UHGV virus genome: UHGV-1394528
Reading direction: 5' to 3' (one strand)
DNA from: a virus
DNA: 32,702 nt
Part shown: positions 1,432-27,979 of the stretch, piece after piece
Position numbering within the stretch: the stretch's first letter is position 1
Layout of the letters: every line of letters starts with the position of its first letter
Position numbers and translations under genes: made by a program
The notes under the pieces: model-generated
What the model was told of the DNA's origin: nothing
Databases searched by the model: none
Seen by the model: the letters and a program-made list of their open reading frames with translations, nothing else

Positions 1432-1468
1432 AAAAAAAAGCCCCTGGCACCCGAAGGCACCAGGGGCG
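1432..1468 (-). terminator. intrinsic (rho-independent) terminator after the capsid region
   Basis: Minus-strand RNA: 12-bp stem GCCCCUGGUGCC / GGUGCCAGGGGC (two G-U pairs), UUCG tetraloop, then U9. On the plus strand the run is A9 upstream of the stem, so it works only for minus-strand transcription. Confidence 0.8.
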
Positions 1469-1666: not shown

Positions 1667-2686
1667 TTAGGGCTTGGTGGTGAAGGTGAACTTGGTCACT
1701 GCAGCGGTGTCCGGACGGCGCAGGCCGATGTTGTACATCGCGTAGCAGTCCAGCACGTTGCTGAACTCGCGCTCATCATCCCAGATACGGGAGGTGAACG
1801 GCTTAGCTTCAACAGTCACCAGGGTCTTGGACTTGCTGAAAGTCACCATACGGCACAGCGCGTCGTCAGAGGTGACGGTGTAAGCAGAGCCCAACGGGTG
1901 CGTACCGGCAGCGGTCGGGAACTCGGTGCACTCTACCACAGGCACGCCGTTCATCTTCACTACACGGCGGTCTTTGTAACCGTCGTTGTTGGATGCACCG
2001 AAGTCCAGGTTCAGGAGCTTCGGATGCTCCAGCAGACGCGAATAGGTATCGACATCCACCAGGGTAATCATGTCCGCCAGCGGGGTCTTGCGCTTGATGA
2101 GTTCATCGATACCAGCCTTGTGGGCCAGGTTGATGTTCATAGCGTTCGCCTCCATCTCAGCCTGGGTCAGCTGCGTGGCGGTGGTGGTACCCGGAACCAG
2201 GACGGCTGCGCCCACCTCGATACCGTCATTGAATGCTGGTTTCAGGTGCGCCGGAGCAACCCAGGAGCGGCCCTTGATGAGCTGAATCAGGTGCGCCTGG
2301 TCGAAGGTCTCCGCGAACTCAGAGCCGTTGTTCTGACCCATCTCGGTCAGGAAGTCCGGACCGGTCCAGTCATCCTGGTAGTCAATCGGGTTACGGATAT
2401 ACAGCACCGTATCCACCACGATAATCATCTTATCGTTACGGACCGGGGTGCTATCCAGCGCCTCACCGGAGCGACGACCTTTCACCGAGGAGGTGTTCAG
2501 GCGGTCAATACGGTAGGTGTTGGAACCACTGATAGAGCGCTGGCTGGAGAGGCCCAGGAACAGAGCCTGGTACTGGAAGCGGGTGTCGACTTCATTCTGG
2601 TACACTTCCAGGTGAATATCGACGTCAGACGCCGCGCCTGCCCAGTGGGCTCTTGTCAAGTTAGCTTTATAGATGGTATCGGCCAT
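1667..2686 (-). CDS. major capsid protein (T7 gp10-like)
   Basis: 339 aa, size and position (after scaffold, before terminator) typical of T7-like major capsid; SD AAGGAAAG upstream. Confidence 0.8.
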   Translation of the reverse strand: MADTIYKANLTRAHWAGAASDVDIHLEVYQNEVDTRFQYQALFLGLSSQRSISGSNTYRIDRLNTSSVKGRRSGEALDSTPVRNDKMIIVVDTVLYIRNPIDYQDDWTGPDFLTEMGQNNGSEFAETFDQAHLIQLIKGRSWVAPAHLKPAFNDGIEVGAAVLVPGTTTATQLTQAEMEANAMNINLAHKAGIDELIKRKTPLADMITLVDVDTYSRLLEHPKLLNLDFGASNNDGYKDRRVVKMNGVPVVECTEFPTAAGTHPLGSAYTVTSDDALCRMVTFSKSKTLVTVEAKPFTSRIWDDEREFSNVLDCYAMYNIGLRRPDTAAVTKFTFTTKP

Positions 2687-2698
2687 ATTCTACTTTCC

Positions 2699-3175
2699 TT
2701 ATTTAAGTACATTAACAGATGCATAAGCATGCATCTTTGCTTTAGCTTTCAGGTAGGCATCTCGCGCTGCGTGTTCGCAGTCAAAGTGCCCGAGGTGTGT
2801 TGTCTTACCATTTAGCTGTATGTAGGCCCGCCACTTGTTAGCTCGGGAATCCCAACAATAGCCTTTCCACACAGAGTTCTGAGCGTTACCTGATTTGTCA
2901 ACTAGGCGCAGGTTCTCAATTCTATTGTCTGCTTTATCCAGATTAATGTGGTCCACCATCAACCCTTGGGGTATATCCCCGTGATGCATGAACCAAACAA
3001 GCCGGTGTGCATACTCTCTCACCCGTCCCGCTGCCCCGCGGTCCCAGGTCACGCGGCGGTATCCCCAGTTATTCTGGTAGGTATCACCGAAACGACCTGT
3101 GGCCTTGTTAATCAAGCGCCCGTCTTCTGTGTAGGTGTAGCGATTAGCTAGTTCTTGCAAGAGATTAATCTCCAT
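2699..3175 (-). CDS. HNH homing endonuclease with AP2-like DNA-binding domain
   Basis: Motif AHRLVW...VDHINLDKADNRIENLRLV (HNH_3 type) followed by an AP2-like WRAYIQLNGKTTHLGHF segment; inserted between scaffold and capsid genes. Confidence 0.8.
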   Translation of the reverse strand: MEINLLQELANRYTYTEDGRLINKATGRFGDTYQNNWGYRRVTWDRGAAGRVREYAHRLVWFMHHGDIPQGLMVDHINLDKADNRIENLRLVDKSGNAQNSVWKGYCWDSRANKWRAYIQLNGKTTHLGHFDCEHAARDAYLKAKAKMHAYASVNVLK

Positions 3176-3187
3176 GATTGGTAAGTA

Positions 3188-4030
3188 TTAGAGACCTACG
3201 CGCTTACCGGCTTCACGGCGTGCGAGCAAATCGTTATAACGTTGACTGAACTGTGGGGATGCCAAGCTACGGTTGCCCGCTTCCTGACGGAGTTTGGTAT
3301 ACTCTGCACGGAAGTCCGCAGCAGATAGTGCATTGTTGCTAGCTACGCCTCGTACCATTGGGTTCTGTGTCTTGATAAGACCCATATCCCGGCAGAAGCC
3401 CGCCACCAACTCGGCGGCCTGCTTAAGCTCGCCTGCGTTAGCGAGTACACGAGCTGCGTTACGCAGAGGTTCCGGAGCCTTGGAATTAAACAGCTGCGCT
3501 GCTACCTCCCAGTTCTCCTTCCCGCCTACAATATCGTAAGCTTCCTGTACTGCTTTGGTGGCTTGGCCAACCTGGTCTTCCAGGTACGCCTTGGCCAGCA
3601 GCTCTGCATAAGCAGCGTGCTCGCCGAAACGTTCCTTAATGAAGGCCGTATCGATTAGGTTAGGGTCCTGGTACTCCAGGGCCTTACCAAGTGCCCGCAC
3701 CATATCAGAGTCAGTTAACCCAGAGACTTTCTGCAACATAGCTACACCGGCGTCAATCGTCGGGTTGCCAGTCTTAGCCAGCTCCTGGGGCTGCTCTTTA
3801 GCGCTATCGCCACCCTTATCCAGGGCCGCTTTTAGGGCTTCGATATCCAGAGGAATCTTAGCAGGGTCAGGGGAATCTTTGCCCTGTTGCTGCTGGGTAG
3901 GTGTCTGTGCATCCTGCACGCCTTGATTGTTCGGGGCGCTAAGGGGAGCACCTAGGCCCGGAATCTTAGGACCACCTTGGTTCTCTACCTGTGTAGTTTC
4001 TACGTTTTGACCGTTTTCTACGTTATCCAT
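3188..4030 (-). CDS. scaffolding protein (T7 gp9-like)
   Basis: 280 aa, acidic and Q/A-rich, low complexity, located between portal and capsid genes. Confidence 0.65.
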   Translation of the reverse strand: MDNVENGQNVETTQVENQGGPKIPGLGAPLSAPNNQGVQDAQTPTQQQQGKDSPDPAKIPLDIEALKAALDKGGDSAKEQPQELAKTGNPTIDAGVAMLQKVSGLTDSDMVRALGKALEYQDPNLIDTAFIKERFGEHAAYAELLAKAYLEDQVGQATKAVQEAYDIVGGKENWEVAAQLFNSKAPEPLRNAARVLANAGELKQAAELVAGFCRDMGLIKTQNPMVRGVASNNALSAADFRAEYTKLRQEAGNRSLASPQFSQRYNDLLARREAGKRVGL

Positions 4031-4044
4031 CTATGCCTCTGTTG

Positions 4045-5640
4045 TTAACTTGGTAATAAGCCCAGCTGCTTACCTGCTACTGTCGGGTCCGCTGCTGTCA
4101 AGCCCTGGAGTTGGTCCTGTGCTGCACCTGCGGATACATCGGCAGACGCATCTTGAACCTGTTGCTTCTGCTGCAGCTGCTCTTCGGTGTACATGAACGG
4201 CTCGCTGACGATACCATAGGCGTCGAAGTACCAGTCTACACACGCATCCTTGTTGAAGCGCGGAGTAATCTGCTCAAGCACCGGGATAGCCAGCTGCATG
4301 GACTGTGCCGCCTCTAACAGCTTGTCCGCTGCCGCGGCTTTAGCCAGCGCAGAGGTACCTACTGTAACGTTGATGCTCACCACGCCTTCGCTGAGGTACA
4401 ACTTAAAGCGAGGGTACACCAGTGCAGTGTACAGGTACGCCAGCTTACGCAGCCAGGTGTCGCTCAGGATACTGAACCCACCACCCATAGCGGCTTCCGC
4501 CTCTTTGGCGTTCTGGCGAATCTCATAAGCCGTGACACGCTCACCCTGCCGGGAGTTGCCGGTGTACATAAACGCACGAGACAGTTTCTGTTCGAGCATC
4601 TGGATGTTGCTGGCAATCCACTGAATCTTCTGGGCAGAGCCGCCCTCGTAAGCAGTGACAGGAGACTTAGTGTTTCCGTTGGAACCACCGCCGCCCACCT
4701 GCACGGCCTCCCCGGTCTCCGCCGTAGAGAACTCGTCCACATCCAGGCCAGAACTAGAATCTACTAGTGGAATCAGCCGAGAGGCTTCGACCTCGTAGTT
4801 AGTCAGTGCTTCCGACAGTACCGATAATCGGGCAAAGTCCCCAGCGTAGTCCTCTACCAAGCCGCGCCCGTAGTGCTCGCCACTAACAAGGTTCCACACC
4901 AGCACGTTGTAGGGGAGCTCCAGCTCCGGATAGGTGCTGCTGTCCCCGATACGGTGTCCATCGGCTTCTTGATACACCTCGTAGCTTACTACCTCTACGC
5001 CTTCCTCTGTCAGCTTAACTTTGCGACAAGCGGCAGTGTAGATATCAACGTCGCCGTATGGGTCTTTGTCACGGTAGAAGGTGTTCTGGAAATCCTCTGG
5101 CAGGTCCTGGACGCTTGTGCGCTCTCTGATAATGAGTCGCAGGACGTTCCCGCTGCCATCCCTTCGAACGGTAAAGTTACGAACTGAGTAGACGATGGAT
5201 TTACCTGTCCGCTCATCAATATACTCCAACGCGTTACCTGTAACCAGCAGCAGCTTCACAGCTTGCAACTTCGCAGCATAACCGTCTTTCTCAAATACTT
5301 TCTGTGACGCTGTGTTCTCAACCTCAGCCAGCTTAGATTCTGCCGTAGCTGCACTGCCCAGCGAACTAATGAACTCGTCCAGGTCCGAACTCTTGGAGAA
5401 CCGGAAGAAGCTAGTGCCCTGAGGGAACAGTGCCCCTACAATCTTAGTGGCTGCAGTGTTGACCAGCTGCGCGCCGGTGCTCTGGTAGTCACGCTCTAGC
5501 GGTCTGCGTCTACCGTCCAGGGAATCGTCCCGGGTAAAGATAGTGCTGAGCGTCCACTGCGCGAACTTCTCGGAGGCATCCAATACACCTGCGTCCTGGT
5601 CCTTCTTAAAGAGTTCTGCTAATGTTGCTTTTTGTTCCAA
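4045..5640 (-). CDS. portal / head-tail connector protein (T7 gp8-like)
   Basis: 531 aa; segments KLQAVKLLLVTGNALEYI and GERVTAYEIRQNAKEAEAAMGGGFSILSDTW match conserved T7 gp8 blocks; apparent TTG start 9 nt after upstream stop. Confidence 0.85.
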   Translation of the reverse strand: MEQKATLAELFKKDQDAGVLDASEKFAQWTLSTIFTRDDSLDGRRRPLERDYQSTGAQLVNTAATKIVGALFPQGTSFFRFSKSSDLDEFISSLGSAATAESKLAEVENTASQKVFEKDGYAAKLQAVKLLLVTGNALEYIDERTGKSIVYSVRNFTVRRDGSGNVLRLIIRERTSVQDLPEDFQNTFYRDKDPYGDVDIYTAACRKVKLTEEGVEVVSYEVYQEADGHRIGDSSTYPELELPYNVLVWNLVSGEHYGRGLVEDYAGDFARLSVLSEALTNYEVEASRLIPLVDSSSGLDVDEFSTAETGEAVQVGGGGSNGNTKSPVTAYEGGSAQKIQWIASNIQMLEQKLSRAFMYTGNSRQGERVTAYEIRQNAKEAEAAMGGGFSILSDTWLRKLAYLYTALVYPRFKLYLSEGVVSINVTVGTSALAKAAAADKLLEAAQSMQLAIPVLEQITPRFNKDACVDWYFDAYGIVSEPFMYTEEQLQQKQQVQDASADVSAGAAQDQLQGLTAADPTVAGKQLGLLPS

Positions 5641-5649
5641 GCTACCCCC

Positions 5650-5916
5650 TTACAGGCCCAGAGGATTGCTCTGCCCTGCTTGTCGCCGTTTCTTCTGCTC
5701 AGACGTAATTGCATCTGCAGATTCAGAGGCAGCCCCTGCGGGGTCAATCTCAGCAATGTTATCTGCGGCGCTATTAGCCTCTAAGGCAGCCTGTTGTTTA
5801 GCTGCGCTGGCCTGCTGCTCTGCCAAGCGCTGCTGCGCCTCTAATCCTGCGTTGTCAGTAAGGCCGAGCATGTCCGTGGCCTTACCTAACAGCTTACCTA
5901 AATTACCACCACTCAT
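5650..5916 (-). CDS. hypothetical protein (possible virion protein), 88 aa
   Basis: Track ORF, A/Q-rich low complexity, overlaps upstream gene by 4 nt (ATGA), sits between RNAP and portal. Confidence 0.5.
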   Translation of the reverse strand: MSGGNLGKLLGKATDMLGLTDNAGLEAQQRLAEQQASAAKQQAALEANSAADNIAEIDPAGAASESADAITSEQKKRRQAGQSNPLGL

Positions 5917-6353
5917 TCTGACCTCACTAAATGATAAGTTGTCTTGTACGTGTTATCCGATGTACTCCGGCTAATGGCTATACGCCCAGCGCGCATGCAT
6001 TTGGCTATTGCGCGCAGGCCTTGCATAATCACAGACACTGCCGCGCCGTTGTCCGGTTTCAATACGAAGAAGTCTGTATACAGCACAGGCTCTACGTAAT
6101 GACAGTCCTCTACAGCCTCTGGGTAGTAGCTGACAGCACCGACTAAGTCGCCTTGGGAGTCATAGACTCCTAGTATATACTGTTTACCCAGTATACTTCC
6201 CAGCACCCTCCAGTAGTGCTGCTCTGGAGCCAGGCCCCGACTAATGCCGTGGCCCAGTTCATGCAGTTGCTTCACTGCGTCCGTAATGTCGTCAGACTTA
6301 TACAGAACTCTGAGAGTGTAGTCGGAAGTTTTACTAGTGTGTTTTAACTTCAT
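5913..6353 (-). CDS. hypothetical protein, 146 aa, first gene after RNAP
   Basis: Track ORF; start preceded by the 17-bp repeat ATGTTACAGGAGTAGGA that contains an AGGAG SD. Confidence 0.55.
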   Translation of the reverse strand: MKLKHTSKTSDYTLRVLYKSDDITDAVKQLHELGHGISRGLAPEQHYWRVLGSILGKQYILGVYDSQGDLVGAVSYYPEAVEDCHYVEPVLYTDFFVLKPDNGAAVSVIMQGLRAIAKCMRAGRIAISRSTSDNTYKTTYHLVRSE

Positions 6354-6378
6354 TCCTACTCCTGTAACATTAAATTTT

Positions 6379-8847
6379 TTAGCAGAAGAAGAACGGGGAT
6401 TCTAGCACTTGCCGGATGTCCAAAGTGCCCACTTCCGGCATGTCCAGGTCCGTCAAGTCTGCCCCGGCTGCTGCTGCCGCGCGAGTAATGTAGCCAAGCA
6501 GGTCATTCTCTTCATACAGGCGCACAAACTGCTCACGGATGTGCCTATGCATAGCGTCAACGTCAGCTGCGTGAGTAGCCAGCGAGTCGTGAATAGGCAC
6601 AATGTCCAACCCCTCCGCAGCACAGAGCACCATCATCAAGTGCGTACTGTCCAGGCTATGCACAAAGTTCGGGGCAATCCCGGAGGCTGCCTTGCGCTTG
6701 TTGCAAGTTTTGAAGTCCCGGTTGTGTACCAGTACCGCTGACAGGTTCATGCAGTCAATACGTACGCGCACTTCTTCACGCTGCGTGTAGCGGTTCATTA
6801 CGAGCCCACCCAGCGGCGTATACCACTGCAGATGCTGGCTTGCCGGTACACGCCTAGCGAGGTTCTGCAAGTACCCCATAACTGCGGCTGCGGCTGGGTT
6901 TGCCTCCTCGATAGCAGTGCGCATACGCGGAGCCAGGTAGCATGACAAGTTCCACAGACTGTTAGTCTCAGTACCCTCGTACCCCTCAGCGCAAGCGCCT
7001 TCGAAGATGTAGTCGCTGCAGCTGCGCACAGTGGCGCTGTAGAAGTAGGTCATACTAGGGCGCTTGGTCATGCTGCGGGTGATTTCGTTCTCTCTCCAGT
7101 ACGTGCTCTGGATAACGAAATCCTCCTTGTCCAGGTCCAGTATCACCTTCTCGTCCGTACGGCGCTTCACGTCCATGTACAGGTCCGCTTTCTTATCATT
7201 ACCCTCCCAGTACAGGTTCGTCAAGCGTCCGCCCACAGGGTCTCTCAGGAGCGCTGAGAGATGCTGTCCACCTGAGTTTGTAGCGTCCATAGCAACTGGG
7301 ATTCGGCTAATATGCTCTTCTGGGCATCCAGAACGAACCGCATTAACCAAGTCGATAGCGGCGGCCAGCAGGCACCAGGGGCTATCCGCAGAGGAAAAAG
7401 CAGGGGCATCAAGAGGAGAATCCGCGAGCCTCTCAATCTCTGCATAGTTCGCATCAACCCAAGCTGCACGGTCTTCGAATAGGGTTTTGTCATAACCAAA
7501 GCAAGTGGCGACGTGCACTTTAAGCCAGAAAAGTCCGCGCTCTCCCAGAGGCTTGCCACGTCCGAATTCAAGAAGGGCTTTCTGCAAATCAGAACCTTGG
7601 GGATGCAGCGAGGACTTGAAGTACAGGCGGTAGCGCCAGTCCACACAAGTCGGGAAGTACAGGGCTTTCTCATCTTTGAATTCCTCCGCCATTTCCAGCG
7701 TGGTCAACAGGCTGCGTAGTTGTGACACACGCTTACGGTCTGCGCTGTACCATAGGGACATGCGCGTCTTCCACTCACCGAAGCGGCCCAGTTCTTCTTC
7801 GGTGTAGTTCTCTTTTGGTACTCCATCCAAGTACCACTCCGGTTTAGGCTCTGGTACTGAGCGGGGCATGCCCACCCCAATACCCAGGGCCCGTGCTTCT
7901 TGCACCAGTTCCAGTATGCGCTTATTAATACGGTATGGGGTTTCCTGTGCCTTATTAAGCGCCTTCTTGATGCCGTCCGCGGACTTAAATGCTTCCGCTA
8001 CTTCACGGAGTCGCGCGCGGTCGATGTGCGAGTTGTGATAGGTCCCGCGATTGTCGATGGGGGTAAGGTACCCGCCATCCCACATAGTGGTGTGCTGTAC
8101 CGGTGGCACCAGCATAGGCGGCTTCATGGTTACGGTATCAGCGGACTCTACCAGTTTCTGGAAGGCCTCCATAACATCGTCAGCCGGGTAGAGCATGCTC
8201 AGGTTCCCACTACAGTTCTTCCATTGGAACAGGCCAGTCTCAAACACCGCGGCACATAGCAGCCGACCTACTGAGATATTCTGGGAGTTGGTCCATGGCT
8301 CGTGCCCATAGTGCACGTTCTCAGCACTGGCCCGCAGCGTACGCAGGATGTGCGTGGGAGACTTGGTCTTACGCTCCGTAAGGTACTCGTACACACGGTC
8401 CATGTACGCCGGAGCCACGTTGCGTAACTGCAGGGCCAGCAGTTCCGATTGTACGTTCCGGCCCAGCGCGGACATTACCGCCTGTGCAGTCTGGCGGCGG
8501 CTAGCGGACTCGCCAGGAGCTACGCTAAATGCCTCAAACATTGTGCATAGGCTCAGGGTGGTCAGGACATCCAAGGGGACTAAGCGCAGGAACCGGCGGT
8601 ACTTACCGCCAATGCCCGGGGCTTTTACATTTCGCATCTCATCGATAGCGGCGGCGGCCACCTCATATGCCGAGGTGAGCATACGCTGCGTCATCGGCAG
8701 GTTCATAATCCCACCGTTCTGCAATGCGTCCGTAATCAGCTTACGTGCCCGCTCGATTCCGCGAATCTTATAGGTCTCTTCAAGCTCCAGCTGGCGTTTC
8801 ACCAGTGCTTCCTCTGGTACTACAACCGTATTCAGGGCGCTAATCAT
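6379..8847 (-). CDS. single-subunit DNA-directed RNA polymerase (T7 RNAP family)
   Basis: 822 aa; motif A-like DATNSGGQHLSALLRD (T7: DGSCSGIQHFSAMLRD) and motif C-like IHDSLATH (T7: HDSFGT). Confidence 0.9.
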   Translation of the reverse strand: MISALNTVVVPEEALVKRQLELEETYKIRGIERARKLITDALQNGGIMNLPMTQRMLTSAYEVAAAAIDEMRNVKAPGIGGKYRRFLRLVPLDVLTTLSLCTMFEAFSVAPGESASRRQTAQAVMSALGRNVQSELLALQLRNVAPAYMDRVYEYLTERKTKSPTHILRTLRASAENVHYGHEPWTNSQNISVGRLLCAAVFETGLFQWKNCSGNLSMLYPADDVMEAFQKLVESADTVTMKPPMLVPPVQHTTMWDGGYLTPIDNRGTYHNSHIDRARLREVAEAFKSADGIKKALNKAQETPYRINKRILELVQEARALGIGVGMPRSVPEPKPEWYLDGVPKENYTEEELGRFGEWKTRMSLWYSADRKRVSQLRSLLTTLEMAEEFKDEKALYFPTCVDWRYRLYFKSSLHPQGSDLQKALLEFGRGKPLGERGLFWLKVHVATCFGYDKTLFEDRAAWVDANYAEIERLADSPLDAPAFSSADSPWCLLAAAIDLVNAVRSGCPEEHISRIPVAMDATNSGGQHLSALLRDPVGGRLTNLYWEGNDKKADLYMDVKRRTDEKVILDLDKEDFVIQSTYWRENEITRSMTKRPSMTYFYSATVRSCSDYIFEGACAEGYEGTETNSLWNLSCYLAPRMRTAIEEANPAAAAVMGYLQNLARRVPASQHLQWYTPLGGLVMNRYTQREEVRVRIDCMNLSAVLVHNRDFKTCNKRKAASGIAPNFVHSLDSTHLMMVLCAAEGLDIVPIHDSLATHAADVDAMHRHIREQFVRLYEENDLLGYITRAAAAAGADLTDLDMPEVGTLDIRQVLESPFFFC

Positions 8848-12426: not shown

Positions 12427-12479
12427 AGGCTTCCTCTAAGGCCCCTAGGAGGGGCCGTATTAGTTTAGGTTAGGGTTGA

Positions 12480-13268
12480 TTAGGCTTGATGTGCGGCGGG
12501 TGCTGCTGGCGCCACAGGGGCTGCAGGGGCCACTGGTGCAGCCGGGGCTGCGGGTGCCTGCATAGCCGCCGGACTAGGAACCGAGCCAGCGTTCAGCAGA
12601 ATATCCAGAGCACTGCCAGGGAAGTCTACAGCCTTGTACATATCCTCCTGAATCCAGTTCTTGCTCTTACCATCGTCGAAGGTGCCTTCGATGTGCAGGC
12701 TATCCCAGGTCTCTTTGGTTGGGTTGTTCCACAGGAACAGCTTAATCTCAGAGGCATCCAGGGCAGGCATCTTGATAGGCTCGCCAGTGTTCGGGTCGAA
12801 TTTCGGAATCGGGCGGATACCGGACAGGTCCGCGATGTTGGACTTCTTGCCCGCGGCGCTGGTGTGCTCATCAATCGGGAAGGTGAAGGCCTGGCCCAGA
12901 CGCTGTGCTGCATGCTTAATGCTATTGTCGTAGTTGAGCTTGTCGAAGAACTTCTTGAAGCCTGCGCGCTCAAAGTTACTGATAGCCATCGGGAACGGGC
13001 GGATACGCTTCACTTCGCCGTTAGGACCGAACACTACAATGCCGATGCGTACGTTAGCTACTGCGGGCTTACCGGTCGGCTTGCCACCCTTAGTCGGCAG
13101 GCGCTTACCGATTTCTACGTACTCGGTGAAGTAGCCGTAGTATTCACCCTTCGGCAGCAGCACGTCCTCATACGCACCGCCCTGTGCGGTTTCAGTCATA
13201 TCAACATCCTGCGTTTCAATAGCAGCCGCTACCAGGGAGTTCAGGGTGTCCAGTGCATTCATCGTCAT
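12480..13268 (-). CDS. hypothetical protein with Pro/Ala-rich C-terminal tail (possible DNA-binding/replication accessory protein by position only)
   Basis: 262 aa; C-terminus PSPAAMQAPAAPAAPVAPAAPVAPAAPAAHQA; no recognisable catalytic motif. Confidence 0.6.
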   Translation of the reverse strand: MTMNALDTLNSLVAAAIETQDVDMTETAQGGAYEDVLLPKGEYYGYFTEYVEIGKRLPTKGGKPTGKPAVANVRIGIVVFGPNGEVKRIRPFPMAISNFERAGFKKFFDKLNYDNSIKHAAQRLGQAFTFPIDEHTSAAGKKSNIADLSGIRPIPKFDPNTGEPIKMPALDASEIKLFLWNNPTKETWDSLHIEGTFDDGKSKNWIQEDMYKAVDFPGSALDILLNAGSVPSPAAMQAPAAPAAPVAPAAPVAPAAPAAHQA

Positions 13269-13538: not shown

Positions 13539-14481
13539 GCAGCATCGGAATTAACTGCGGGCAACCCTCGGTGATTACCATCACACCCAGGATTGGTTTC
13601 TTGCGGGTGAGTCTGCCGTAAGCAAAGGCCATGCTCTTACGGTCAATCAGACACCCAGCATACGCACCAAAGTACAAAGCTGTTGAGCTAGCTGCATATT
13701 GCACCTCAAAGCGACCATGTTCGTGACCAAGGACAAGGCTGGTTCTTTCGTGGCTAGCGTTGAGCATGAAGTCACCCGACACTTGATGCTGGAATCTAAC
13801 CGGGCCAAGTGGGGTATTGAGTACCCACGCGTCAGCCCAAGACCACGCCGGGGCACCATGTTCAGGGAAAAGTATATCTCGGTACTTCTTGATGAATTGC
13901 ACTGGTAGCCCGTGAGCTTTCGCCCTGCGGTAAACCAGACTGCCGTGATTGGAATCGCAAACCAATAGGTTCGGGAACAGTTCATGTAGCTCCTCCAGTA
14001 CGAGCTTAGCTTTCTCCAGCTCCACCCCGGCGCTATCCAGGTTCGGGTTACTTTCGTGGAATGATATAGCGTGGCCGTCCGTCTCGTCGCCTACCTGTAC
14101 AACCATGTCCGGACAGTAGGCGTCTCGCACAGATTCTAAGAAGGCCATAGCATCTACGTGCGTATAGGGGGCATGCAAATCCCCAACTACGAGAATACGG
14201 TGGCACACTTCCGGCACGAAGGTTTTGCCGATGTCATCAGTGGGACTGGGCTGTATGAGCTTTAGTGCCTCCTTCATGTGGGATATTGCCTTACCCTTGC
14301 TCCCAGCGTGGTCTAGGAATATGCTGCGCCAGTACTTCACCATCTGTCGATACACCACTGGCTCGTCCAGTCCCGCCAGCTTATTATAGGCGGCAGCAGC
14401 ATCCACGTTAGAGCTGTGCTTGCTCAAGATATCTATGTGTTGCTCTTTGGTGAATAGCTTTATTGTGTTTAACTTAGGCAT
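13501..14481 (-). CDS. calcineurin-like metallophosphoesterase
   Basis: Motifs in canonical order: GDLHAPY (DxH), VGDETDGH (GDxxD), CDSNHG (GNH-like), LGHEH. Confidence 0.7.
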   Translation of the reverse strand: MPKLNTIKLFTKEQHIDILSKHSSNVDAAAAYNKLAGLDEPVVYRQMVKYWRSIFLDHAGSKGKAISHMKEALKLIQPSPTDDIGKTFVPEVCHRILVVGDLHAPYTHVDAMAFLESVRDAYCPDMVVQVGDETDGHAISFHESNPNLDSAGVELEKAKLVLEELHELFPNLLVCDSNHGSLVYRRAKAHGLPVQFIKKYRDILFPEHGAPAWSWADAWVLNTPLGPVRFQHQVSGDFMLNASHERTSLVLGHEHGRFEVQYAASSTALYFGAYAGCLIDRKSMAFAYGRLTRKKPILGVMVITEGCPQLIPMLLDDDGRWVGRTK

Positions 14482-14908
14482 TCCAGCTCCTGTTACTTAT
14501 TACGTCACTAATTACATGTACACCTACACCGTACTTATTAGCAAAGTGTTGCCGCATACCTTTCTTGTATGGGATATAGTTATCCCTGATATCCTGCACA
14601 GCATCCCAAGTTAACTGCGCTTTTGGGTTCCTATCCCCACGCACATCTGGGTTCCTTCCGCGCTCTGCACGGTCCCGCATATTATCCATATGCGTTCCCA
14701 ATACTAAGTGCTTAGGGTTAATGCACCTGGGGTTATCGCAGGTATGTCTAACAGACAGGCCAGCCAGCGCCCTTATATCCAGCCCGTTATGCTCAGCATA
14801 CACCACCCGATGCAGCAGCTCCAATCGCCTGGTCGGCTTATACCATGCCCGGCGGTATCCGTTCTTGTTAAGGCATTTGTTATACCCGTGGTCAATACAC
14901 ATCGACAT
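14474..14908 (-). CDS. HNH homing endonuclease
   Basis: VRHTCDNPRCINPKHLVLGTHMDNMRDRAERGR motif; paralog of the HNH at 19520-19957; SD AAGAGGG upstream. Confidence 0.8.
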   Translation of the reverse strand: MSMCIDHGYNKCLNKNGYRRAWYKPTRRLELLHRVVYAEHNGLDIRALAGLSVRHTCDNPRCINPKHLVLGTHMDNMRDRAERGRNPDVRGDRNPKAQLTWDAVQDIRDNYIPYKKGMRQHFANKYGVGVHVISDVISNRSWNA

Positions 14909-15069
14909 TCGGTACCCTCTTGTGTTGTTCCTACTCGTATCACATTAATTCTCTGTGAATCACAGAATCAAGCTAGAGTCAACAAATAATTTTATTTAAT
15001 TATTTAGTTGACCCCAGTGTATTTCCATGCTACCCTAACCCCCTACACCACCCAAGGGTCCACCTATCA

Positions 15070-19957: not shown

Positions 19958-20729
19958 CTAATAACTCCTGTATTGTTGCCTCTTTTGGGTCCCCGTCGTA
20001 GTAGATTTCGTGGCACGACATAAAGGGACGTAGCGCGCGCCGTATCATGGCCGCGCCGGAGTGTCCCGCTTGGTCATTATCCAGGGACAGTATCACTGTC
20101 GGTTTGTTCTGTATCAGCCACGCCCTTAACTGCACGGGCAAGCGAGTACCCAGCATAGCTATAGCCTGCACGTTCATTGCAGAGTAGTTCGTAATCGCGT
20201 GCTGATATTTGATCGCTGATAGATAGTCCTCGGTGAGCACGACCTTTAGAGGTGCGGCCGCAGCTACATCCGGCGCTACGGCAGGTGCCGCGGCAGCGAA
20301 CGGCATTGGCTGGCCGTACATTACCCACTTCGGTTGCTGTCGGGCATGCACTGCACGGCCCAGAGCAGCGCTTCCGACACGGAATATTATCCGCTGTTTC
20401 TCTTTGCTCCATTCTGCATCCTCCACCATTTCAGGCATGATTCCCTTTGTGGTCAGGAATCCGTAAAGAAAACTCTGCGTTTCCGCAGGCGCTTGGCTAA
20501 TGCAAATTGCATCTGCAGGTGCAGAGGGCTGCACCCTCGGCTCTTCCTGTAACTGTATGCGCTGGTACTGCTTGTGCTCCTTGCCCACCTGTTTGCAGCG
20601 GTGGCAATAATATTCCCAGGCATCCGGGTTATTGTAGAGCACCCCGGCGGCGTCCCTGCCGCAGCACCGAAAGCGCGCCCTCTGCCCAACGGCCAGGCGC
20701 TTGCACGCTCTAAGCCAGGGCTGGTCCAT
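19938..20729 (-). CDS. DNA primase (zinc-ribbon + TOPRIM)
   Basis: Cys4 zinc ribbon (FRCCGRD...YCHRCK) followed by TOPRIM-like VVLTEDYLSA ... SLDNDQAG. Confidence 0.7.
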   Translation of the reverse strand: MDQPWLRACKRLAVGQRARFRCCGRDAAGVLYNNPDAWEYYCHRCKQVGKEHKQYQRIQLQEEPRVQPSAPADAICISQAPAETQSFLYGFLTTKGIMPEMVEDAEWSKEKQRIIFRVGSAALGRAVHARQQPKWVMYGQPMPFAAAAPAVAPDVAAAAPLKVVLTEDYLSAIKYQHAITNYSAMNVQAIAMLGTRLPVQLRAWLIQNKPTVILSLDNDQAGHSGAAMIRRALRPFMSCHEIYYDGDPKEATIQELLDGIRRV

Positions 20730-21181: not shown

Positions 21182-22230
21182 CCCTCCACAATATTATCGT
21201 ATCCGCCCCAGTCTTCTACGACTCGGGTGCCTAGTTCAATCAGTTCTTCTTTAAAGCCGTAATCGGAGAACACCATTATGTACTCCGCCGCCTTCTCTGG
21301 ATTCTCCTGTACCCAGCTAACCAGTTGTTGTTTAGAAAGCTGCGATACTTCCCGGAACGCGGCCAGTAACTGCGGGTCCTCGTCCGGCGGCATATCCCAC
21401 GGCTGCCGTAAACTGAGCGTCGATGCAGCGGGCCACTGGCATAGGTCTGGCTCTGCTACTGCCGGGTCCCGCTCAATAGGGAGGTGCGAGAACGTGCCGT
21501 CTTGTAGTACCCGCTCAAGCACCTGGCCCAGTATGTTCAGGTCCAGCACCTCATCCGGGGTGTGCTCGTGCATGTACCCTACACCGACGTTGGTGCACTC
21601 AGGGATGATGCCGACGAACTCGGCTGAGTCAGTATACACACCCTTTTGTAAGTGCTGCTCCGTGCGTCCTAGGCGCTCTGCCAGAGTCTTGGCAAAGGTA
21701 TCAGAGCAGCAGCGCATGTACCGCTGGTGCGTAATGATACCATCTCCGCGGCGGTCAAAGCTAATCATCGCCTTGACACCAGTCCAAAATCCAGTGTCAT
21801 CCTTGACCGATGCAGCGCTGCCTTCGCAGCCCACCTCTTCATCCACGAAGAAGCAGTAGCGTCCGCGCACACCTCGCCGCAGCATCTCCAGCATCAGGTA
21901 GATACCGGCGCCGCAGTCTGCGCCCAAGCAGTCAGCTTGCTGCGGATTCTTTACGAACAGTACACCCTTGTTAGTGCAACCAACGTCCGGCGCGGCGCTG
22001 GTTGGTCGGGCCACCGTATCGAGGTGCGAAGTAAACGCAACGTCGCTTTGCTCTGAGCCCCCCGCCAGCACGAAGTAGTTCCCGTGCTTGTCCTTTACGT
22101 AGTGCATATCACTACCCAGCGCCCACTCAAGCAGCGGCTCAAACCACTTAGTGCTACCCCAGCTAGGCCGGTGCGTTTGTAGTATCTGCAAGAGCAGCTG
22201 CATATCAATCCCGTGCGGATTCAAGAACAT
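21178..22230 (-). CDS. M28/M20-like (clan MH) zinc metallohydrolase-like protein
   Basis: Metal-ligand pattern in canonical order and spacing: H69-x-D71 (HLDTV), D105 (GADCGAG), E131-E132 (DEEVG), D158/D162, H220/H222 (GYMHEH); about 120-aa C-terminal extension. Confidence 0.55.
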   Translation of the reverse strand: MFLNPHGIDMQLLLQILQTHRPSWGSTKWFEPLLEWALGSDMHYVKDKHGNYFVLAGGSEQSDVAFTSHLDTVARPTSAAPDVGCTNKGVLFVKNPQQADCLGADCGAGIYLMLEMLRRGVRGRYCFFVDEEVGCEGSAASVKDDTGFWTGVKAMISFDRRGDGIITHQRYMRCCSDTFAKTLAERLGRTEQHLQKGVYTDSAEFVGIIPECTNVGVGYMHEHTPDEVLDLNILGQVLERVLQDGTFSHLPIERDPAVAEPDLCQWPAASTLSLRQPWDMPPDEDPQLLAAFREVSQLSKQQLVSWVQENPEKAAEYIMVFSDYGFKEELIELGTRVVEDWGGYDNIVEG

Positions 22231-23912
22231 TAAGCTGCCTCCTCTGCTTCTTCTTCATCTTCATCGTTGCCCAGGTACTTCTCTCCCAAGCAATCAGCTG
22301 CATGCTCAGTGAGAATTAACCCGTGCACTGGGTGTTCTTCTGCGTGCTCAATAAGCACTTGCCGGTCCTGTGCAAACACCAGTTCCTCTTGGTCGTGCAC
22401 TACACCCTCTACTGCGCAGCGCTCTATGTCCTCGTCGTATACATAGGCGTCGTGGTAATCAGACCAGGTGCAGCTCCAGCGATTATGCAGACCATCACGC
22501 CCAACTACGTACACAAAATCCCCTTCTTCTACGCAGCCGTCGCAGACCATATCACCATCTGCGGTCTCCTGCATGTCATCTACAGAGTAGCGACATTCAC
22601 AGCAGCAGCACCGAGCAGACTCAGTGCCTACGTAGATGTATCCTTCTGAGTCTTGTGCCTCGTACCCATAAGCATCACGGATTACAAAGGCATCATCCCC
22701 ATACTCATCTACGCCGCACTGGCTGCTATCTAGGTATGGCATCAGCACTGCGCCGTTGTATGTTGGGTGCGGTATTCGCGCCAGCATTACCCCTTCGAGA
22801 CATTCAATGTTTTTGGTGTACCTATGCCCCCGCAGGATTGCATCCGCAGCGTTGCCGTAAGCGCGGACGTACTCGTTAGTTTCTGTGTTAACGATTGCCC
22901 GTGCCTGCACTTCGAAATCGTCGCCGAACAGCTCCCCGGTGTACTGGATGAACAGGCGCAGCCCATTATCCGGCAACCCGTGGCTGGTGGTAGCGTACGT
23001 CCGCACAGAGCTATGCTCAAATGAGTACCCGCTCATGCAGCTACCCGGGCCATTCTCGTAGGCGTCGTACCATTCCTGCTCGGTCTTGCACAGGTACGTT
23101 GTAGGGTCTACGTTCATAGCCTTGAGGTCTTCGATAGCATCGCGGAAGTCCACACCATTTCCGTAGTAGTTAGCGAGCCACTTACCTACGCGCATCTCTA
23201 CGCAGCGGTACTCAGTAACTGCTGCGAAGTCCTTGTGCATCCGCGGCTGCCCCAGCATCACGATAGGTTCGCCGTTGCGGAAACCAAAGCCCAAAGGCAC
23301 GGCGAATCTAGACACTACGAAGCCGTGCAACTTCATGAGCAGCGCAGCTAAGTTGCCATCGCGGGTGTGGCGGCCGTAATCGTAGCCAGTGTATAAGCGG
23401 CGCTGCTGCTCTTCTGGTGCAAGCATGATGCGCTCAAATAACTGCACGGCCTGCTTGTGCACCTTGTAACCTGTGAATTCTTCGACGCAAGCAACTACGC
23501 GCTCAACCACTACATCCTCGCCCTCATAGAAGTCGCGGCGGCGTTCCCAGAACTTGCTGTCTATGGTGATTCGCACCGGTTCAAAGAGTTCGCAGAAAGT
23601 TCCGGACCGGTACAGGTCCACCTTTTGCAACGGGCCGAGCGTCATCGTTGATTCGCGATACTCTGGGTGCAGTGCCCCGCCTATAGTCACCTCTAAGCCT
23701 GGAGTGTGCGCACTGACAGTGCGGAGACCCATAAGCACCTGCAGCGGACCCTCAGTGTGGGGATGGTCCTCCCCTTGCATTTGCAAGTCCTGGAACGGGG
23801 TCCAGTAATCACCGCTGGAATACATTGATTCTTTAATCGGCAGTGCGTTTGCACCTTCCGGTAACACTACTTTCCATTCGATAGGTGCTGTGTTAGTTTC
23901 TTGCATTTTCAT
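22230..23912 (-). CDS. large hypothetical protein with Cys cluster and acidic C-terminal tail
   Basis: Track ORF 22230..24200 (656 aa) trimmed to Met97 (ATG 23910-23912, SD GGGAG); the first 96 codons are Ser/Leu/Pro-rich and overlap the more protein-like 114-aa ORF. Contains CCCCECRY...CDGC and C-terminal NDEDEEEAEEAA; stop overlaps next ATG (TAATG). Confidence 0.6.
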   Translation of the reverse strand: MKMQETNTAPIEWKVVLPEGANALPIKESMYSSGDYWTPFQDLQMQGEDHPHTEGPLQVLMGLRTVSAHTPGLEVTIGGALHPEYRESTMTLGPLQKVDLYRSGTFCELFEPVRITIDSKFWERRRDFYEGEDVVVERVVACVEEFTGYKVHKQAVQLFERIMLAPEEQQRRLYTGYDYGRHTRDGNLAALLMKLHGFVVSRFAVPLGFGFRNGEPIVMLGQPRMHKDFAAVTEYRCVEMRVGKWLANYYGNGVDFRDAIEDLKAMNVDPTTYLCKTEQEWYDAYENGPGSCMSGYSFEHSSVRTYATTSHGLPDNGLRLFIQYTGELFGDDFEVQARAIVNTETNEYVRAYGNAADAILRGHRYTKNIECLEGVMLARIPHPTYNGAVLMPYLDSSQCGVDEYGDDAFVIRDAYGYEAQDSEGYIYVGTESARCCCCECRYSVDDMQETADGDMVCDGCVEEGDFVYVVGRDGLHNRWSCTWSDYHDAYVYDEDIERCAVEGVVHDQEELVFAQDRQVLIEHAEEHPVHGLILTEHAADCLGEKYLGNDEDEEEAEEAA

Positions 23913-25178: not shown

Positions 25179-25227
25179 ACGCCAGTTGCATTCACATAGC
25201 GCCCCGCAGGACGCTATAGGCTTGCTA

Positions 25228-25871: not shown

Positions 25872-25942
25872 AATGCACCTCTTTGATTGGTTGTTTAGGT
25901 AATTACTTCACATAGCACCCCGTAGGATGCTATAGGCTGTAA

Positions 25943-26559: not shown

Positions 26560-26588
26560 AATCTAGCTTATGTTCTTCGCGGTGTCAA
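26560..26588 (-). promoter_or_regulatory. candidate sigma70 early promoter (upstream of tandem pair)
   Basis: Minus strand: -35 TTGACA (26588-26583), 17-bp spacer, -10 TAGATT (26565-26560). Confidence 0.4.
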
Positions 26589-26740
26589 CTCTTTTTATTG
26601 AGTGTCTAACCCTTCACACTATCTAGCTTTAATCCGGCTGAATCTCCCGACTCTGCCCCGGTTAGCGCCTCAGTGCCTCCCGGTGATTGAACTATAGCCC
26701 TATTGAACCAAAAGAAGCAAGTACTTTTTTAAACTTTTTA

Positions 26741-27157
26741 TCACCGGGAGCAAAAAGAGTAAGCAGACCCCCAAAGGTCTGCGTGCAGTAAACTATTGTA
26801 GTCCCCATAAGTCACGTCGAACTCTCGCCAGTTAGTATCGTACTCAGGACTAGCCAATAACTCATCCTTTGTGAAGCATCTCCCTTCCTGAATCTGTGCT
26901 AAGTGTATGGCCCGGTGAGTGTCAGCGCTAACCAGTATCAGGTTATTGAAGTCACAGTTAAGGCGGTTACTGTCACAGTGATGTACGTGATAGCCAGAAC
27001 CGTAGCTAGTGATTCCCAGAGCATCCATAACCACGGCCCTATGCAGCGCCACAGTCTTATAGTCTCTCTTACCTCGCTTATTCACATACTCAGGCCCAGC
27101 ACCATTAATCACTGGATAACCTTCCTTATCAACCACAATCTTAAATGTTCTAGCCAC
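26741..27157 (-). CDS. HNH endonuclease
   Basis: HVHHCDSNRLNCDFNNLILVSADTHRAIH (H-N-H core); GTG start with SD AAGGAG. Confidence 0.7.
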   Translation of the reverse strand: MARTFKIVVDKEGYPVINGAGPEYVNKRGKRDYKTVALHRAVVMDALGITSYGSGYHVHHCDSNRLNCDFNNLILVSADTHRAIHLAQIQEGRCFTKDELLASPEYDTNWREFDVTYGDYNSLLHADLWGSAYSFCSR

Positions 27158-27399
27158 AACAATATCTCCTTACATAGTGATTAGTAGCGTAACCATAGCG
27201 ACGATATCCCGGAGGGATAGGAGCGGAGGTTACAAGATTCTAGGTAATGCTTCCCTCCCTACGGTCAGTCATACAGGGCATTACTAGGGGATACTAGTGA
27301 CTACTAGTGAGTAGTAGTAAGTAGTGTGTATATAGTGCCCTAAAACCCTCCTACTCCTGTAACATCATTTCATGACAGCTTTCGAATGAAAGTAAGAGC

Positions 27400-27830
27400 A
27401 AAGGGATAGCAAAGAGATAGCGCCGGGATAGTGTTGGGTGAGGATGTGCGCCCTAGTGGGGAGCGCGCAGCGTAGCATATAATCGGCACAATGTAAAGCA
27501 CTAGGGATAGCCAGTGGATAGCCTAGTGCATACTAGGGATAGCACCGTGACGCACTACAGCGCACTAGGCAGGCCCACTATGGCCCCACAATGCAGGCAC
27601 TAGGCGGGCCCACTATGGACGCGCAAAATAAGCAAGGCAGAGCGCACCCCTACGGCCCACAGGGAGCGCACAGGGATAGCCCCTAGTGCCCCGTAGAGCG
27701 CACAGGAGCCACTCAGTGCCACGCACAGGCCAAGCCGTGGGGCAGCACTAGCGATAGCCCCAGCGCAGCGCAGGGAGCCACTGAGGCCCTCTGAGGCTTC
27801 CGCTATAGCCACGGTCTTAGCTGCCGTGGC
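27400..27830. repeat. repeat-dense CTAG-rich non-coding region (iteron-like GGGATAGC copies, 24-bp tandem repeat, short palindromes)
   Basis: At least 7 copies of (G)GGATAGC-like octamers (27403, 27414, 27425, 27504, 27516, 27536, 27673, 27751); direct repeat gcactaggcRggcccactatggMc at 27562-27585 and 27597-27620; GAGCGCAC x3. Confidence 0.6.
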
Positions 27831-27979
27831 GCTCCACACCTCAGAGAGCGCCCTAGGGCCGTCTAGACGTCTAGGCACCCACCCCACCCCTCCTTTTATG
27901 CGCTAGGCACCCCCTATGGGGGCAATTGGCGTCGTTGAGGGTGAGGGAGGCTCAAGGGCGAGTATAATAATTTTTGGTT

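Follow-up and report, generated by a model that had tools for sequence, protein, structure and literature searches.

The promoters of phage T7 are about 17-23 bp long, end at position -1 and initiate with G, and the specificity loop of the T7 RNA polymerase (RNAP) contacts approximately positions -7 to -11 (PDB 1CEZ). The closest described system to the one analysed here is that of the Klebsiella phage KP34, for which a 'strong promoter', 5'-T(A/G)ATGTTACAGGAGTA-3', has been defined (PMC6834552). It is present as two 16-mers, S1 (TAATGTTACAGGAGTA) at 22197-22212 and 33721-33736, and S2 (TGATGTTACAGGAGTA) at 475-490 (PMC6834552). Purified KP34 RNAP initiated transcription downstream of the RNAP gene at nt 22213, as located by 5'-RACE (Lu et al. 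2019, PMC6834552), and this nucleotide is the G that follows AGTA. Activity in vitro was seen with each 16-mer, and was much weaker with the shared 14-mer alone; the evidence on the KP34 promoters is mostly in vitro, and S2 was assayed on an oligonucleotide template only (PMC6834552). A weak promoter, W (ACTTTGGACATCCGTCAAGT), was placed inside the 3' end of the RNAP gene (PMC6834552). PhageProm has since catalogued 467 predicted KP34-like promoters in 135 genomes, about 3.5 per genome, its protein-DNA co-variation analysis being restricted to T7-like pairs (NAR 2025, PMC11880802). In LUZ19 and phiKMV, the phage-specific promoters read GgtTATGTCACacACAnnGG (Putzeys et al. 2024, PMC10914365).

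The DNA analysed here (referred to as the window; the whole stretch of 32,702 nt) belongs to a Drulisvirus (KP34-like, Autographiviridae), with about 250 Klebsiella phages matched by megablast at 80-95% identity and a nucleotide identity of 92-95% to many Klebsiella KP34-like phages. Its RNAP is 100% identical to that of the IMG/VR contig 3300045988_001730 (43,741 bp), evidently the contig from which the window comes, and 97% identical to the RNAP of KP34 (locus L009); compared with T7 RNAP structures, it gave E = 2.6e-67. The contig is circularly permuted and the window is a permuted piece of it. The approximately 11 kb of the contig outside the window extend from the tail tube to the tail fibre by way of the internal virion proteins, and the third strong promoter is located there. 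At about position 27947, the window corresponds to the physical left end of the KP34 and AttikonH4 genomes, and one collapsed terminal repeat lies at about 27640-27947. The left-end non-coding region and the terminal repeat (27280-27760) are full of short degenerate direct repeats, such as (A/G)GGGATAGC, CACTAG(G/T)G and GCACTAGGC(A/G)GGCCC, an array that recalls the short-repeat arrays near the T7 genome ends. The features that matter for the following are listed in Table 1.

Table 1. Features of the window, all on the minus strand; promoter assignments are predictions.
Feature	Position	Strand	Details
Terminator, intrinsic, after the capsid gene block	1440..1467	-	GCCCCTGGTGCCTTCGGGTGCCAGGGGC followed by T9
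Capsid gene	1667..2686	-	
Scaffold gene	3188..4030	-	
Portal gene	4045..5640	-	
First gene past S1, KP34 gp38 homologue	5913..6353	-	146 aa, without Pfam family
Predicted strong promoter S1, TAATGTTACAGGAGTA, with the initially transcribed GGA	6354..6372	-	-16..-1 = 6372..6357; predicted +1 = 6356
Homologue of KP34 weak promoter W, ACTTTGGACATCCGGCAAGT	6407..6426	-	19/20 bases, one T-to-G change
Single-subunit (T7-type) RNAP gene	6379..8847	-	822 aa; PF00940 and PF14700
RNAP specificity loop, EEVRVRIDCMNL-SAVL-VHNRDFKTC	6703..6777	-	residues 691-715; SAVL = residues 703-706, 6730-6741
Promoter-like element, site D, TAATGTGATACGAGTAGGAAC	14927..14947	-	upstream of HNH ORF 14474..14908
Host sigma-70-type early promoter, TTGACA-17-TAGATT	26560..26588	-	about 780 nt downstream of S2
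HNH endonuclease ORF	26741..27157	-	next after copy 2
Predicted strong promoter S2, TGATGTTACAGGAGTA	27349..27367	-	-16..-1 = 27367..27352; predicted +1 = 27351

A first-pass annotation of the window, made from the sequence, had pointed to a 17-mer repeated exactly at two places, the first between the RNAP stop and the next ORF and the second with no ORF directly after it. Our exact search recovered both copies of the 17-mer (TCCTACTCCTGTAACAT) on the + strand, at 6354-6370 (copy 1) and 27349-27365 (copy 2), and their settings are as described, with copy 1 abutted by the ATG of the gp38 homologue and copy 2 separated by about 190 nt from the next ORF. The 17-mer is the longest exact direct repeat within the window. 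Since all long ORFs are encoded on the minus strand, and the GC skew is negative throughout, the repeat is to be read as its reverse complement. With two bases added, the minus-strand copies are TAATGTTACAGGAGTA and TGATGTTACAGGAGTA. On this strand the repeat reaches one conserved base further than the 17-mer, as T[A/G]ATGTTACAGGAGTAGGA, 19 nt with one mismatch. In its surroundings, copy 1 reads ...aaaaattTAATGTTACAGGAGTAGGAatgaag... and copy 2 reads ...catgaaaTGATGTTACAGGAGTAGGAgggttttag..., the latter within non-coding DNA, where the bases directly after the copy (GGGTTTTAG) contain no start codon. The conserved block spans about 19 nt, and the flanks of the two copies are unrelated.

The same annotation judged the repeat very unlikely by chance. 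Taking significance from direct repeats only (the inverted-repeat count was dropped, as short perfect palindromes inflated it), we simulated 500 first-order Markov sequences and, to include the look-elsewhere effect, counted any exact direct repeat of 17 nt or longer; 12 of the 500 contained one. At about 2%, chance is indeed unlikely, and the repeat by itself is suggestive, neither overwhelming nor decisive. The second-longest exact repeat, a 16-mer (GCAGCGCTGCCTTCGC) at 21812 and 24586, lies within coding regions and is at chance level, some direct repeat of at least 16 nt being present in 52 of the 500 simulations. A third match to the 17-mer, with three mismatches, is located at 14929-14945, and shuffled sequences yielded 0.11 matches at three mismatches or fewer.

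What identifies the element is its comparison with KP34. The published coordinates of S1 and S2 were confirmed against the KP34 genome, and copy 1 equals S1 and copy 2 equals S2, each at 16 of 16 positions. The surroundings of S1 are identical in the two phages from -16 to +20. S1 comes 5 nt past the RNAP stop and is followed after 3 nt by the gp38 ATG, as in KP34, and S2 is in unique non-coding DNA of the left end, about 580 nt from the genome end and upstream of the host-type early promoter, whose sequence is the same as that of the annotated KP34 promoter at 931-959. A third strong copy is found inside the gp48 internal-virion-protein gene, in the source contig (loci L089/L007/L130) and outside the window. 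This phage and KP34 therefore share the 16-mers, the initially transcribed GGA at +1 to +3, the three genome positions and the RNAP recognition loop (MRNVKAPGIGGKY) and specificity loop (..SAVL..), with no sequence difference in the promoters; the difference is that the phage studied here is an uncultivated relative, known from its sequence. We consider it highly probable (roughly 0.93) that both copies are promoters for the phage's own single-subunit RNAP, of the KP34 strong type. This reading is supported by the identity to active KP34 promoters, by the synteny of the sites together with a cognate RNAP whose loop matches, and by the co-variation with the polymerase loop described below. The element itself is thus already known, being the KP34 strong promoter in a close KP34 relative. 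The homologue of the weak promoter W is also present, and its conservation says little because it sits in coding sequence, at the 3' end of the RNAP gene.

The first-pass annotation had made its proposal depend on the presence of the motif in related genomes. Three regions were scanned in Drulisvirus contigs of IMG/VR, namely the surroundings of the RNAP gene, of gp47/gp48 and of gp2, which is close to the left end, and this gave a set of 61 contigs. The element followed the RNAP gene in 61 of 61; it was also present at the left end and in gp48 wherever sequence was available, the left-end site being conserved in 36 related contigs. These contigs fall into two classes according to the base at position -7. 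In 29 of them, the window and KP34 being of this kind, the specificity loop reads IDCMNL-SAVL-VHNRD and position -7 is A at all three sites (left-end, post-RNAP and gp48), while in the remaining 32 the loop has TIMR (TILR or TIVR in rare cases) and each of these sites carries C at -7. This pairing holds without exception in the 61 contigs, and the cultured phages agree with it, KP34 and 6993 being SAVL/A and AttikonH4 being TIMR/C. The RNAP alignment has 169 variable columns, of which those of residues 703, 704 and 706 are the only ones split perfectly by class. In the 300-600 nt flanking each site, position -7 is the only common polymorphism with a concordance of 1.00, the median of the others being 0.56-0.64 in a test that used strict per-site contexts. 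These low values argue that the association is not clonal linkage: the genomes are thoroughly recombined, and the association across sites located 12 and 21 kb from the loop is kept by selection. Neither the C-class sequence (TTACCGGAGTA) nor the link between A or C at -7 and SAVL or TIMR was found in the literature searched.

Such an association is the expected outcome if the specificity loop reads position -7. In the T7 complex, residues of the specificity loop read positions -7 to -11 in the major groove. HMMER aligned R694, R696 and S703 of the window RNAP with T7 R746, N748 and Q758, in a register that is uncertain owing to a 3-residue gap; the loop was delimited following PMC4411677 (Table 5). 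On the strength of the co-variation, residues 703-706 are the likely readers of position -7, and it is conceivable that Leu706 would lie against the thymine methyl of an A:T pair and Arg706 against the guanine of a C:G pair. The comparative data also dispose of the idea that the repeat is a functionless coincidence. Although exact direct repeats of this length arise in a small percentage of random sequences of this size and composition, as given above, both sites occupy homologous positions in dozens of relatives, are equal to an active promoter and co-vary with the RNAP; we rejected chance on these grounds and regard its probability as negligible.

Assuming that both copies are promoters, the following course of events can be proposed. 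The RNAP would bind promoter positions -16 to -1 as a 16-bp duplex, with the central bases, -7 among them, read by the specificity loop, and would open the AGTA/GG region, so that the RNA would begin at the first G after AGTA, at 6356 for copy 1 and at 27351 for copy 2. From S1, late transcription would proceed through the gp38 homologue and the portal, scaffold and capsid genes to the terminator at 1467-1440. This terminator, identical to the one at 26623-26660 in KP34, is likely to be the end or an attenuation point of the S1 transcription unit. From S2, which is upstream of the host-type early promoter, the phage RNAP would transcribe into the early region later in infection; this early-region transcription could be the role of S2, or else S2 might serve in replication or concatemer processing. 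Firing of this phage's RNAP at S1 and S2 in vivo is what the comparison with KP34 leads us to infer.

The arrangement at S1 has a consequence for the first gene. The predicted start is 3 nt before the gp38 AUG (GGA-AUG), as it is in KP34, where the start is at 22213 and the CDS begins at 22216, and an RNA started at S1 would therefore be near-leaderless for gp38. An AGGAG at promoter positions -7 to -3 lies 5 nt before the gp38 AUG, and this arrangement (6351-6363 in the window) is kept in the 61 relatives and in KP34. The AGGAG would act as a ribosome-binding site only on transcripts reading through from the RNAP gene, which suggests that gp38 may be co-expressed with the RNAP and not with the late genes. 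Approximately one-fifth of the related contigs (loci L019, L020, L028, L029, L032, L033, L035, L036, L039, L045, L054, L062 and L063) have an extra 350-480 bp between the RNAP stop and the promoter, which still adjoins gp38; in AttikonH4 (locus L005), the insert (22694-23170) is annotated as an HNH endonuclease gene.

Given this overlap, part of the conservation at copy 1 could be translational, and the 17-mer as a whole might be seen as a duplicated translation-initiation element, carrying the Shine-Dalgarno-like AGGAG, rather than as a promoter. The position of AGGAG before the ATG at copy 1, where it may serve read-through transcripts, fits such a role. Copy 2, however, is followed by no start codon and its nearest ORF is remote, and the third copy of the relatives lies within a gene, gp48, again with no start codon after it. 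Moreover, a ribosome-binding site would not be expected to co-vary at -7 with residues of the RNAP loop, and KP34 RNAP initiates from the same sequence in vitro (PMC6834552). A purely translational element is thus highly improbable.

The proposal of the first-pass annotation was for a phage RNAP promoter or a processing site, and only its first part was upheld, by the identity to KP34 S1 and S2, the homologous positions and the co-variation with the loop. T7-like phages do process their polycistronic mRNAs, and the element could in principle be an RNA processing site, for instance an RNase III target like those in T7 mRNAs. Nevertheless, the 111-nt contexts of the two copies fold no better than shuffled sequences (z = -1.28 and -1.06), neither copy has the stable extended hairpin of an RNase III-type site, and the conserved block is too short, at about 19 nt between unrelated flanks, to fit it well. 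Strong hairpins resembling processing sites lie elsewhere, at 25191-25222 and 25907-25938. Altogether, we hold a processing site to be highly improbable as well.

These hairpins are formed by two minus-strand copies of a 32-nt motif (AGCCTATAGCGTCCTACGGGGCGCTATGTGAA), with z = -4.3 and -4.9; their inner stem shows a compensatory change from G-C to A-U, and their outer stems are built from unrelated flanks. They look like RNase III-type processing sites in early mRNA. The same motif was formerly predicted as a KP34-like 'phage promoter' (PMC4411677); it is a different element from the one studied here and was inactive with KP34 RNAP in vitro (PMC6834552), and we did not retain it as a promoter.

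Another possibility is that the element acts at the DNA level, as a signal for a localized single-strand nick, for replication or for packaging, instead of or besides being a promoter. In T7, phiOL and phiOR have been linked to replication and concatemer processing, and copy 2 is likewise near a genome end. In addition, there is a resemblance between the core read on the + strand, CCTACTCC(T/G)G, and a motif associated with nicks in the phiKMV-like phages of Pseudomonas, CCTACTCCGG (PMC3604761). Against the phiKMV-type nick site (CGACNNNNNCCTACTCCGG), both copies read CCTACTCCTG (6354-6363 and 27349-27358), matching CCTACTCCGG at 9 of 10 positions, and both lack the CGAC that the nick consensus has 5 nt upstream; in LUZ19 (locus L170), the nick motif is at 3139, 6762, 14422 and 24774 and carries the upstream CGAC. 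The orientation of the nick motif relative to the genes is, furthermore, opposite in LUZ19, and in fHe-Kpn01, the one Drulisvirus examined for nicks, a single nick was located by PhageTerm and S1 nuclease at nt 7873, in the primase gene, and none at the promoters. The co-variation with the loop also points to the RNAP as the reader of the element. For these reasons, a DNA-level signal is very unlikely, and we retain the reading of both copies as promoters.

The likeness to the nick motif is nonetheless closer in the other class of Drulisvirus promoters: the C-class promoter matches CCTACTCCGG at 10 of 10 positions, its sequence from -8 to +2 (CCGGAGTAGG) being the exact reverse complement of that motif. 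It might be supposed that the promoter core and the phiKMV-like nick motif are the same element, perhaps with a common origin or reader, an idea suggested by this match that we consider unlikely. If true, the nick sites could be relic or alternative recognition sites of a single-subunit RNAP or of a partner nuclease, or, alternatively, the Drulisvirus promoters could double as sites of strand interruption in virion DNA. The notion that the phiKMV nick motif is a LUZ19 promoter was dropped, as ONT-cappable-seq gives a different promoter motif for LUZ19 (PMC10914365). In the primase gene of the window, at about 20500-20557 on the minus strand, the sequence TACAGTTACAGGAAGAGCCGAGGGTGCAGCCCTCTGCACCTGCAG is homologous to the surroundings of the fHe-Kpn01 nick, which corresponds to position 20520 approximately. 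A small palindrome, GTGCAG...CTGCAC, contains this nick, and a 9-nt promoter match (GTTACAGGA) precedes it by 22 nt.

A related sequence upstream of an HNH gene, at about 14920, had also been noticed in the first-pass annotation. This sequence, GAGTAGGAA, is indeed present on the minus strand at 14936-14928, as part of the element that we call site D. Compared with S1, site D agrees at 13 of the 16 promoter positions; it differs at -10, -8 and -6 and is identical at -16 to -11 and -5 to +4. Across 55 contigs, which include both RNAP classes, its sequence shows next to no variation, and there is no co-variation at -7, the A being kept at this position even in the TIMR genomes. The strong-promoter stretch of site D (14947-14932) thus departs from the strong class both in the 16-nt consensus and in the behaviour of -7, and site D is not among the promoters reported by Lu et al. 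(PMC6834552). A sigma-70 scan around it returned a single weak match that does not overlap it. The genes downstream of site D vary by genome, being Gp5.5-like, HNH or phosphoesterase genes, and the site is at the boundary before this variable gene slot. Site D is possibly a weak, middle or differently regulated promoter, or something else.

With T7, the system described here has in common short promoters, a G start and a single-subunit RNAP with a specificity loop. The first-pass annotation had compared the layout, with one copy at the start of the late region and one near a genome end, to that of T7, and the analogy of copy 2 with phiOL is a reasonable one, both being near the left genome end and upstream of host promoters. 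The T7 promoter (TAATACGACTCACTATA), on the other hand, is unrelated to the element except for the TAAT start, and T7 has 17 promoters compared with the three strong copies per genome here. Unlike in T7, the RNAP gene is placed mid-genome, so that the late region begins with the promoter behind this gene. The specificity switch between T7 and T3 pairs the RNAP change N748D with promoter positions -10/-11. The two Drulisvirus classes resemble this switch in that closely related polymerases differ at residues of the specificity loop that co-vary with a promoter base; they differ from it in the base concerned, -7, and in the residues, 703-706, which align near T7 Q758 and not N748 (in an uncertain register), and the Drulisvirus case is known here from comparing sequences.

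The layout in LUZ19 is also alike, with few promoters, two of them immediately behind the RNAP gene and a further one within the structural region (PMC10914365); it differs in the promoter sequence and in having an antisense copy in the early region, in contrast to the sense left-end copy of Drulisvirus. In a distant relative (locus L060), whose RNAP is 58% identical, the KP34 promoter is not present. Its genome has instead the motif GAGACACGTT(G/A)TAGAG(G/A)GACA, with two copies immediately behind the RNAP gene and a third upstream (12450-12560 and 4423), which amounts to the same layout with a different specificity.

Considering that the promoter has been characterised biochemically in KP34, the type phage, and catalogued in more than 100 genomes, its rediscovery from raw sequence matters little in itself. 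It does allow an uncultivated genome to be annotated with confidence, with two promoters, their predicted starts at 6356 and 27351, and a late transcription unit. What is added here is the link between position -7 and the specificity loop, and with it the existence of two natural polymerase/promoter classes within one genus, in which the pairing is preserved at three scattered sites although the genomes are otherwise heavily recombined. SAVL with A and TIMR (TILR, TIVR) with C are a natural minimal candidate for an orthogonal RNAP-promoter pair.
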